Positions 46,941 through 47,198 of a stretch of 64,000 bases of DNA are shown here, piece by piece. Position 1 is the stretch's first letter. Each line of letters begins with the position of its first letter. Below the pieces are notes generated by a model that saw only the letters and a program-made list of their open reading frames with translations, did not search any database and had not been told where the DNA came from. Location of the stretch: sequence record PQ287642.1. One strand, 5' to 3'. The position numbers were made by a program, and so were the translations under genes. This DNA comes from Pseudomonas phage HHBS36_1.

Positions 46941-47198
46941 CTGGGTGGATGGGGCTTTGTAGCCCCACGACACCCTCTTCCAAGTTTTGCGACATAGTCG
47001 TTTTTATTTCCCTACCCCCGTACTAAAGAATAAGGAAATTATATATGGGACCCCCCCAAAGGGTCCCCCCCACATATAATTACTATTTATATAAAATTTC
47101 TTTTAAAGAAAAAGCATTTAATAAGGAAAATACTCTTTATTAAAGATATCTATTCTTTAACAACAAGTTACTTATGCGCGGCCGGCCCCGCGAAAAAA
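46941..47198. other. ORF-free composite region with GC hairpins, two C7 tracts, and a ~100-bp AT-rich block (candidate origin or ncRNA)
   Basis: GGGGCTttgtAGCCCC. GGGACCCcccc-aaa-GGGTCCCcccc. AT-rich tactatttatataaaatttcttttaaagaaaaagcatttaataaggaaaatactctttattaaagatatctattc. GCGCGGCCGGCCCCGCG followed by an A10 tract. Confidence 0.35.

Follow-up and report, generated by a model that had tools for sequence, protein, structure and literature searches.

What occupies the 372-nt gene-free gap (46873–47244) that precedes the operon of the PhuZ tubulin in Pseudomonas phage HHBS36_1? We analyzed a stretch of 64,000 nt from this phage (PQ287642.1), referred to below as the window. The initial annotation had described 46941–47198 as a composite noncoding region with GC hairpins, twin C7 tracts, an AT-rich block of ~100 bp and a palindrome, and had considered it origin-like, with a small structured RNA or phase-variable homopolymers as alternatives. 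All of these features are present, except that the palindrome (GCGCGGCCGGCCCCGCG on the plus strand, 47176–47192) is an imperfect one. Our results support a real, functional and noncoding composite, speak against phase variation, and neither establish nor exclude an origin. Comparative evidence identifies the central part as a conserved, single-copy noncoding hairpin element of phiKZ-like Pseudomonas jumbo phages, in which the genes on both sides have been replaced. The element is apparently undescribed; literature searches on this locus, or on a Chimalliviridae origin or pac site, found nothing relevant. The 900 bases around it shared 99% identity with Pseudomonas phages phiHQ, phiLBG22, PS119XW, PA1C and BRkr, and 82.5% with HPP-Temi. 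All are Chimalliviridae jumbo phages with genomes of ~300 kb, PS119XW and HPP-Temi being assigned to the genus Pawinskivirus; by sequence, the window belongs to a PA1C/PS119XW-type Pseudomonas jumbo phage of this family. Since the genes around the element are all on the minus strand, the letters of the initial annotation must be reverse-complemented to read it, and sequences are given below on this gene strand unless the plus strand is named.

The central part of the gap (~47026–47145) matched noncoding DNA of other genera, with identities of 81% for phiKZ and its relatives, 86.5% for PhiPA3, 88.7% for Psa21, 87.9% for D6 and 87% for RVTF4. Homologues with a different hairpin apex were detected in 201phi2-1, three IMG/VR contigs and Noxifer; in 201phi2-1 and Noxifer the G-tract core was not conserved and only the hairpin architecture was shared. 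In every case, the element was located 1–3 kb upstream of PhuZ on the gene strand. The PhuZ protein of the window phage was 36.6% identical to those of the phiKZ relatives and 29% identical to that of Noxifer. An 8-kb comparison with phiKZ yielded coding matches of ~68% identity, and no similarity was found between the 261-aa protein encoded upstream of the gap and phiKZ gp37 (Dip), or between the 254-aa protein encoded downstream and the products of the phiKZ and Psa21 genes in the corresponding position. Thus, the noncoding element has outlasted its neighbors, and its nearly unchanged sequence next to replaced genes indicates that it is functional. The 24-nt apex was invariant across five genera apart from the length of the first G tract, which was 6, 7 or 9 (6 in PS119XW, PhiPA3 and RVTF4), while the second tract was always exactly 7 in phiKZ-type copies.

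A covariance model of the element found a single copy in the window and a single copy, at 21.2 kb, in the complete genome of the 99% identical phage phiLBG22 (302,555 bp). Near PhuZ in EL, OBP, Erwinia Ea35-70 and Serratia 2050HW, nothing better than E 0.85 was obtained with this model. A pattern scan of metagenomes recovered only two homologues (contigs L018 and L116), nearly all other matches being unrelated GC-rich repeats or CRISPR spacers. In D6 (L005, ~2475) and in the related contigs L010 (~105), L012 (~9410) and L116 (~915), a C9–C11 tract was observed ~22 nt downstream of the hairpin, just before the ribosome-binding site of the next gene, and Noxifer (L007, ~2470) had a C10 tract. 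These tracts could pair with the unpaired G residues of the hairpin; they are not conserved in other clades.

The hairpin was examined by a covariation test on a model-based alignment of 17 distinct copies, with pairing partners slid by one to three columns and 500 shuffles as controls. Pairing was found in 93.2% of cells, compared to 22–62% with slid partners; seven pairs had changed on both sides, and the observed covariation was reached in none of the 500 shuffles. One stem pair occurred as three types (G-C, A-U and U-A). The outer stem was AATTATAT/ATATAATT in the window phage, HPP-Temi and PhiPA3, AATAGTAT/ATACTATT in Psa21, D6 and RVTF4, and ATATTAT/ATAATAT in phiKZ, and one of its pairs was C-G in contig L013. 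The main hairpin folded in all homologues except one. As judged by this covariation, the hairpin is real and its base pairing is under selection, which makes the structured-RNA alternative plausible. Conservation, covariation and the single copy together exclude chance.

Several observations bear on the strand that forms the hairpin. One position was never Watson-Crick except in Noxifer: phiKZ-type copies had G.U, L013 had A.G and the 201phi2-1 clade had a tandem GA/AG, and on the opposite strand the same position would be read as an A.C or pyrimidine-pyrimidine mismatch. Neighboring hairpins contained U.G wobbles and GTAA/GTGA loops on the gene strand. This pattern of mismatches and wobbles fits RNA of the gene-sense strand and is suggestive, not decisive, since DNA hairpins tolerate G.T and tandem GA pairs as well. 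When the 258-nt stretch was folded and compared with shuffled sequences, the gene-sense strand gave -87.4 kcal/mol (z -5.2) and the other strand -67.2 kcal/mol (z -3.9).

On the gene strand the main hairpin reads AATTATATGT-GGGGGGGACCCTTTGGGGGGGTCCC-ATATATAATT (47081–47037), with GGGGGGGACCCTTTGGGGGGGTCCC as its apex and a long, irregular stem of ~17 bp interrupted by a bulge. It contains both G7 tracts, that is, the twin C7 tracts of the plus strand (GGGACCCCCCC at 47047–47057 and GGGTCCCCCCC at 47061–47071). In the phiLBG22 genome, we counted two G/C runs of at least 7 nt versus 12.4 +/- 3.2 expected, and both were in the element; runs of at least 6 nt numbered 3 versus 52 expected, and runs of at least 5 nt 68 versus 249. 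As the genome avoids G/C runs, the two tracts of the element must be kept by selection. Features of the gap and its surroundings are listed in Table 1.

Table 1. Position and basis of features in and around the gene-free gap (window coordinates; sequences on the minus strand unless stated otherwise).
Feature	Position	Strand	Basis or remark
261-aa gene, upstream of the gap	48030–47245	minus	
Intrinsic terminator hairpin of the 261-aa gene, phiKZ type, GCCCTCTCC-TTCG-GGAGAGGG followed by TTAT	47216–47235	minus	read from sequence
T10 run after the terminator	47193–47202 (47202–47193 on the gene strand)	minus	length 7–10 among near-identical isolates
GC-rich imperfect palindrome CGCGGGGCCGGCCGCGC, then CATAAGTAA	47176–47192	minus	inverted repeat
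Upstream AT-rich hairpin UUAAAGA...UCUUUAA	47137–47164	minus	folding, inverted-repeat search
Pyrimidine motif M1 (TTTTCCTTATTAAATG), direct repeat of M3	47115–47130	minus	13 nt, 92% identity, two copies only
Small AT palindrome P1 (TTTCTTTAAAAGAAA), YCTT-N2-5-AAGR in most clades	47097–47111	minus	clade comparison
Conserved core, match of covariance model R1 (78 nt)	47022–47099	minus	99.6 bits, E 5e-19
Conserved 5' flank M2 (TATATAAATAGT), nearly invariant across all clades, unpaired	47082–47093	minus	alignment columns
Main hairpin (45 nt): outer stem AATTATATGTGGG / CCCATATATAATT, G-rich 5' bulge, inner stem ACCC/GGGT, loop TTTGGGG	47037–47081	minus	covariation, folding, inverted-repeat search
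TATG, start motif of the non-virion RNA polymerase; candidate +1 is G 47073, also the conserved non-Watson-Crick position of the hairpin	47073–47076	minus	promoter matrices
Conserved 3' flank M3 (TCCTTATTCTTTAG); in this phage can pair with G-rich 47019–47006	47023–47036	minus	alignments, folding
Small hairpin CGAC-TAT-GTCG	46990–47000	minus	folding
GC hairpin GGGTG..GGGGCT-ACAA-AGCCCC..CCACCC	46943–46975	minus	folding, clade comparison
Promoter of the PhuZ operon, early class (virion RNA polymerase); TATATTAC at 46919–46912	46910–46941	minus	promoter matrix
Downstream operon: 73-aa, 42-aa and 254-aa open reading frames, then PhuZ tubulin	44657–46872	minus	
PhuZ tubulin gene	45610–44657	minus	

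The AT-rich block extends over ~47072–47175, and between the upstream AT-rich hairpin and P1 the pyrimidine motif reads TTTTCCTTATT in gene-strand order. Other clades had a hairpin at the same relative place as 47137–47164, with different stems (TACTTC-GATA-GAAGTA, CTCC-GATA-GGAG). Hairpins 3' of M3 were clade-specific: the small hairpin at 46990–47000 resembled AGAC-TAT-GTCT of L139 and the GNRA-capped hairpins seen in the 201phi2-1 clade, and the GC hairpin at 46943–46975 showed compensatory changes in PhiPA3 (GGGACT/AGTCCC) and phiKZ (TTGGCT/AGCCAA). In the D6, L009, L138 and L139 clades, the block matching the GC palindrome was the Arg/Ala-rich, GC-rich 3' end of the upstream gene with its stop codon. 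The palindrome, together with the CATAAGTAA stretch (47167–47175) that follows it, may therefore be a relic of an upstream gene end, left when the present upstream gene and its terminator were swapped in. Besides the T run, further homopolymers of the gap varied among near-identical isolates (G run 47009–47013, 4–5; A run at ~46880, 5–6), and phiHQ had a T-to-C change in the apical A-U pair. These differences may reflect real slippage or sequencing error.

The terminator and the early promoter that had been proposed at 47216 and 46911 were both recovered. The terminator hairpin fits the reported phiKZ motif BCCYCCCCHWWDGGGRRGGBYTTAT (Putzeys 2024) and was unchanged in six close isolates and in HPP-Temi. 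With a matrix built from nine mapped phiKZ early promoters (an A-rich tract, about 11 nt, then TATATTAC), 46941–46910 scored 22.3, compared to a background mean of -24 (sd 8) and to 25–34 for the mapped phiKZ early promoters; TATATTAC itself was enriched (8 matches versus 2.4 expected). In the window, scores of 18–28 were obtained at 17802, 27260, 54505, 41585, 46941 (the promoter just described), 29149, 51955, 39171 and 6418, all on the minus strand, indicating that the early-promoter consensus (an A-rich tract, then TCTATATTAC) is common to phiKZ and the genus of the window phage. In the usual layout of this clade, a terminator directly adjoins an early promoter; for example, the hairpin GCCTCCC-TTCG-GGGAGGC at 48115–48098 is immediately followed by an early promoter at 48094–48065, apparently the usual arrangement. 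The spacing of ~300 nt between terminator and early promoter at the gap, with the element in between, therefore stands out. Given this order (terminator before, early promoter after), neither early transcription unit of the window clade includes the element, and PhiPA3 has the same layout.

What function might such an element have? We infer that it is either a transcription or RNA control element or a replication origin. Tentatively, we rank first a start site (TATG) of the non-virion RNA polymerase (nvRNAP) that is embedded in the hairpin and would give the PhuZ operon a structured leader; a replication origin, a plain intercistronic RNA hairpin and a small RNA follow in this order. The phiKZ nvRNAP recognizes only TATG on the single-stranded non-template strand and starts at the G, with an efficiency that depends on undefined flanking and downstream sequence (PMC12809450). 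In the element, the 5' arm of the hairpin ends in TATG (47076–47073), located on the non-template strand at the candidate start site, and T-A-T was invariant in 17 of 17 distinct copies, whereas stem positions farther from the apex covaried. Using middle and late matrices derived from 13 and 27 AT-rich mapped promoter sequences of phiKZ (which belongs to another genus than the window phage, a point that weakens the comparison), this TATG scored 12.7 and 8.0, respectively. The middle score placed it near rank 15 among the 605,000 positions of the phiLBG22 genome, together with sites resembling genuine middle promoters; mapped phiKZ middle promoters had a median of 15.7 and a minimum of 7.7, and the 99.9th percentile of the genome was 6.2. 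The aligned TATG was also the best late-matrix match of the intergenic region in five genera (window phage, phiKZ, PhiPA3, Psa21 and 201phi2-1). The element thus resembles known phiKZ nvRNAP middle and late promoters (Ceyssens 2014, Yakunina 2015, PMC12809450) in the TATG at the candidate start, the AT-rich upstream sequence and matrix scores in the mapped range, and a dependence on downstream sequence is known for these promoters.

A number of points weigh against a start site at this position. The AAATACT/TACT box expected ~22 nt upstream is absent, with AAATTTTAT in its place, and genuine middle-type sites of the same genome carry AAATACT. L013 (TATAC) and Noxifer (TATAG) lack TATG and have kept the pairing. 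No transcription start site was present in the phiKZ gp37–gp38 gap among the 149 start sites of ONT-cappable-seq, in which the whole infection was pooled (nearest, 30150 and 33472), nor was a transcript end listed there, and the parts available of an early-infection phiKZ dRNA-seq study do not report a start site in the gap. No other nvRNAP promoter is known inside a covarying hairpin. A start at G 47073 would also leave the 5' arm out of the RNA, so that the covariation of the outer stem would have to be explained separately, by transcripts that read through or by a hairpin at the DNA level.

If the nvRNAP does start here, the element would be a cis-acting control module, present once per genome and placed before the PhuZ operon, acting on the gene-sense strand at the levels of transcription and RNA. 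Early in infection, the virion polymerase would use the early promoter at 46941–46910, and the terminator at 47216–47235 would keep most early transcription of this phage out of the element. Once made, the nvRNAP would start at G 47073 and produce a second, longer leader, whose first 26 nt are predicted to fold into a very stable G/C hairpin (GGGACCC/GGGUCCC). This hairpin may shield the 5' end and thereby sustain expression of the PhuZ operon in middle and late infection. Transcripts from upstream, as in phiKZ, where the element is inside an early polycistronic mRNA, would hold both arms and could form the full hairpin. A module with its own start site would explain the gap of ~300 nt between terminator and promoter.

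Other signals in the same sequence were considered and rejected. An early promoter within the element is contradicted by early-matrix scores of 6.3 (window), 9.0 (phiKZ) and 2–3 (Psa21, 201phi2-1), against 25–34 for mapped promoters. The main hairpin is not an intrinsic terminator, as it is followed by ATATATAATTTCC instead of a U run or TTAT and the phiKZ gap has no mapped end. A riboswitch-like pairing of M2 with M1 or M3 gave a strong duplex in no clade other than Psa21/D6 (the remaining clades reached about -1 to -4 kcal/mol), and changes on the 3' side of a basal stem extension M2–M3 were uncompensated. A link to Dip, the RNase E inhibitor encoded by the upstream gene in phiKZ (gp37), was rejected, the upstream protein of the window having no similarity to it. 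An Rfam cmscan of 46000–48200 with E values up to 10 gave only chance-level matches well under the gathering scores, the sole one in the element being SCARNA7 (12.7 bits versus a threshold of 65), and neither a tRNA nor a tmRNA was found in the window.

A replication origin acting at the DNA level is a possible, if doubtful, explanation. The AT-rich inverted repeat would be extruded as a hairpin or cruciform, or would bind an initiator, and transcription of the C-rich template into the G tracts would leave a stable RNA-DNA hybrid that primes DNA synthesis. In a fuller version, which we consider somewhat improbable, the element would be the origin of phiKZ-like, nucleus-forming jumbo phages, in which the nvRNAP transcribes the G tracts from TATG over the C-rich template, and the resulting R-loop together with the AT-rich, hairpin-prone flanks primes the first DNA synthesis in the phage nucleus. 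An origin is consistent with the occurrence of one copy per 302-kb genome, the conservation independent of both neighboring genes, the position between terminator and promoter outside both early units in the window clade, the AT-rich flanks and palindromes, a polymerase start motif facing G-rich sequence, the avoidance of G/C runs in the rest of the genome, and a distance of only ~5 kb from the global minimum of cumulative GC skew, the sole candidate that skew offers; in addition, no origin is named for the Chimalliviridae in a review of jumbo phages from 2026. No direct-repeat family in the gap had more than two copies, hence there are no iterons.

Cumulative GC skew, calculated over the whole phiLBG22 genome, had no inflection at the element, an outcome that the initial annotation had named in its own refutation test. 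Within the window, the skew fell steadily from 44 to 52 kb and turned at ~52.0 kb, about 5 kb away from the element; this turn is the global minimum of phiLBG22 (~16 kb; maximum ~284 kb). The minimum coincides with a switch of the coding strand, which alone is able to produce it, and with skew confounded by transcription direction, this analysis neither supports nor excludes an origin. If the skew means anything for replication, it points to ~51930–52035 of the window, a divergent gene boundary of ~100 bp that contains the early-promoter-like site at 51955 on the minus strand. Further points against an origin are the lack of a mapped start site at the phiKZ copy, the G-tract core that is not conserved in 201phi2-1 or Noxifer, and the fixed mismatch and wobbles, which fit a one-strand RNA better than a two-strand cruciform.

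Known origins offer partial parallels. The T4 origins oriF and oriG consist of a middle promoter next to an unwinding element, and ColE1 and the mitochondrial conserved sequence block II (CSBII) are G-rich, primer-forming elements. The element of the window resembles them in having a start motif of a phage polymerase by AT-rich DNA and a G-rich noncoding non-template strand with two G tracts of polymorphic length. It differs in that it has no skew inflection and that the G-tract core is not present in all clades; moreover, its covarying hairpin has no counterpart in those systems. Herpes simplex oriS, a palindromic AT-rich viral origin, is similar in being an AT-rich, hairpin-capable palindrome in an intergenic regulatory gap, but no flanking initiator-binding boxes were identified at the element, whose origin role is so far a prediction. 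A different DNA-level function, a TubZRC-type partition centromere (tubC; multiple direct repeats that precede an adaptor gene and the tubulin gene) for PhuZ, was rejected for want of a repeat array; the genes that separate the element from PhuZ differ from genus to genus, with no similarity, and no adaptor protein was identified.

It is unlikely that the element is a plain intercistronic RNA hairpin without a promoter, serving as a processing site, stability barrier or protein-binding operator in early polycistronic mRNA or in read-through transcripts. In phiKZ, the element is inside TU024 (gp36–gp39), which according to ONT-cappable-seq is bounded by early promoter P017 (29413) and terminator T016 (32943), with no start or end listed in the gp37–gp38 gap, and it is thus transcribed there on the gene strand. 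This location, covariation along the whole stem including the part upstream of TATG, a stem geometry compatible with the RNase III type (an irregular stem of ~20 bp) and a wobble pattern that fits the sense strand all agree with such a hairpin. However, the main early mRNAs of the window clade and PhiPA3 do not contain the element, given the terminator before and the promoter after it, so that a purely mRNA-internal role requires read-through. Simple processing or stability hairpins are also not usually identical across genera in 24 apical nt and both flanks, and no processed ends are reported at the phiKZ site. Phage T7 has RNase III hairpins between genes (R1.1 and others). Like these, the phiKZ copy is a long, irregular hairpin that separates cistrons in an early polycistronic mRNA, but the element is single-copy instead of one per junction, its primary sequence is extremely conserved and it is outside the early units in the window clade.

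A trans-acting small RNA of ~120–130 nt is quite improbable. Such an RNA would begin at TATG (47073), end with the GC hairpin near 46943 and combine a 5' hairpin, a single-stranded CU-rich seed (UUUCCUUAUUCUUUAG) for pairing with ribosome-binding sites and terminal hairpins. The layout between terminator and promoter, the four predicted hairpins in a row and the conserved CU-rich motif would fit this model, and phiKZ-like phages make small RNAs at other loci. However, reports on the phiKZ transcriptome by Grad-seq, dRNA-seq and ONT-cappable-seq contain none from this locus; in the Psa21, D6, RVTF4 and 201phi2-1 clades the next gene begins 50–60 nt after the hairpin, leaving no terminal hairpin; and a U run is missing after the distal hairpin. 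A conserved jumbo-phage small RNA is located upstream of the tail gene gp182 (sRNA005 of 201phi2-1; PMC11512511). Like this RNA and the noncoding RNAs of phiKZ detected by Grad-seq and ONT-cappable-seq, the element is structured, noncoding and conserved by position across phiKZ, 201phi2-1 and PhiPA3, but it differs in locus and sequence, and those RNAs were detected as transcripts while the element is known here from its sequence.

Phase-variable or slippage-prone homopolymers, a short open reading frame spanning the tracts, or unrelated hairpins brought together by chance can be dismissed almost entirely. The first G tract does vary and short reading frames are annotated here in public records, but all phiKZ-type copies in five genera share a second tract of exactly 7, the variable first tract is located in a bulge, and none of the reading frames spans the tracts consistently. 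Coding potential was rejected on either strand, as frames were not conserved and changes in tract length shift every candidate frame. The short "hypothetical protein" reading frames annotated over the element on the opposite strand (phiHQ XYM48902.1, PA1C QBX32174.1, PhiPA3 gp023, D6 WDS62408.1, HPP-Temi CDS0415/0416; 47038–47136, plus strand, in the window) are probably spurious; in phiKZ, by hand translation, the frame is cut to 10 aa. The pattern of a G-quadruplex (four runs of at least 3 G, loops of 1–7 nt) is present in G7-ACCCTTT-G7 of the window as regards the sequence of this copy only, and a conserved intramolecular G-quadruplex was rejected, because it fails in the G6 variants (PhiPA3, RVTF4 and PS119XW) and in the 201phi2-1 and Noxifer cores.

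The metagenome scan also yielded observations on other sequences. Six contigs (L047 at 680–765, L023, L046, L081, L106 and L125) contained a long palindrome, whose stem measured ~28 bp and whose apex was GGGGGG(A/T)CCCTGTGGGGGGGTCCC; in L047 a gene for a rolling-circle Rep protein (Pfam REP_ORF2-G2P, E 1.8e-19) ended immediately before it. We did not use these palindromes as evidence, since the likeness of the apex is largely forced by the search pattern. Many other matches (L019, L020, L029, L084, L086, L088, L094, L097 and others) were CRISPR spacers flanked by the repeat GTTTCAATCCCACGCTGGTTCGATTGAGGC. The spacers carried GGGGGGGACCC-N4-5-GGGGGGGACCC, which matched 15-nt tandem repeats in coding sequence of other contigs of the same scan (L055, L063, L067 and L092).

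The phiKZ-like phages serve as a model for the phage nucleus, the PhuZ spindle and host-independent transcription. Hardly anything is known of the DNA and RNA signals that act in cis in them, and the few noncoding RNAs described so far are from other loci. The element described here is the most nucleotide-conserved feature of its neighborhood, and it holds the only long G/C homopolymers of a genome that otherwise avoids them. Tools for a direct test are available in phiKZ, including Cas13a-assisted editing, Tn-seq, purified nvRNAP and several transcriptome data sets. On any of the readings above, the element provides a precise target of 45–78 nt, which may be a hairpin-embedded start site of an unusual polymerase that reads only four bases, an RNA-level control of the tubulin operon, or a replication origin.

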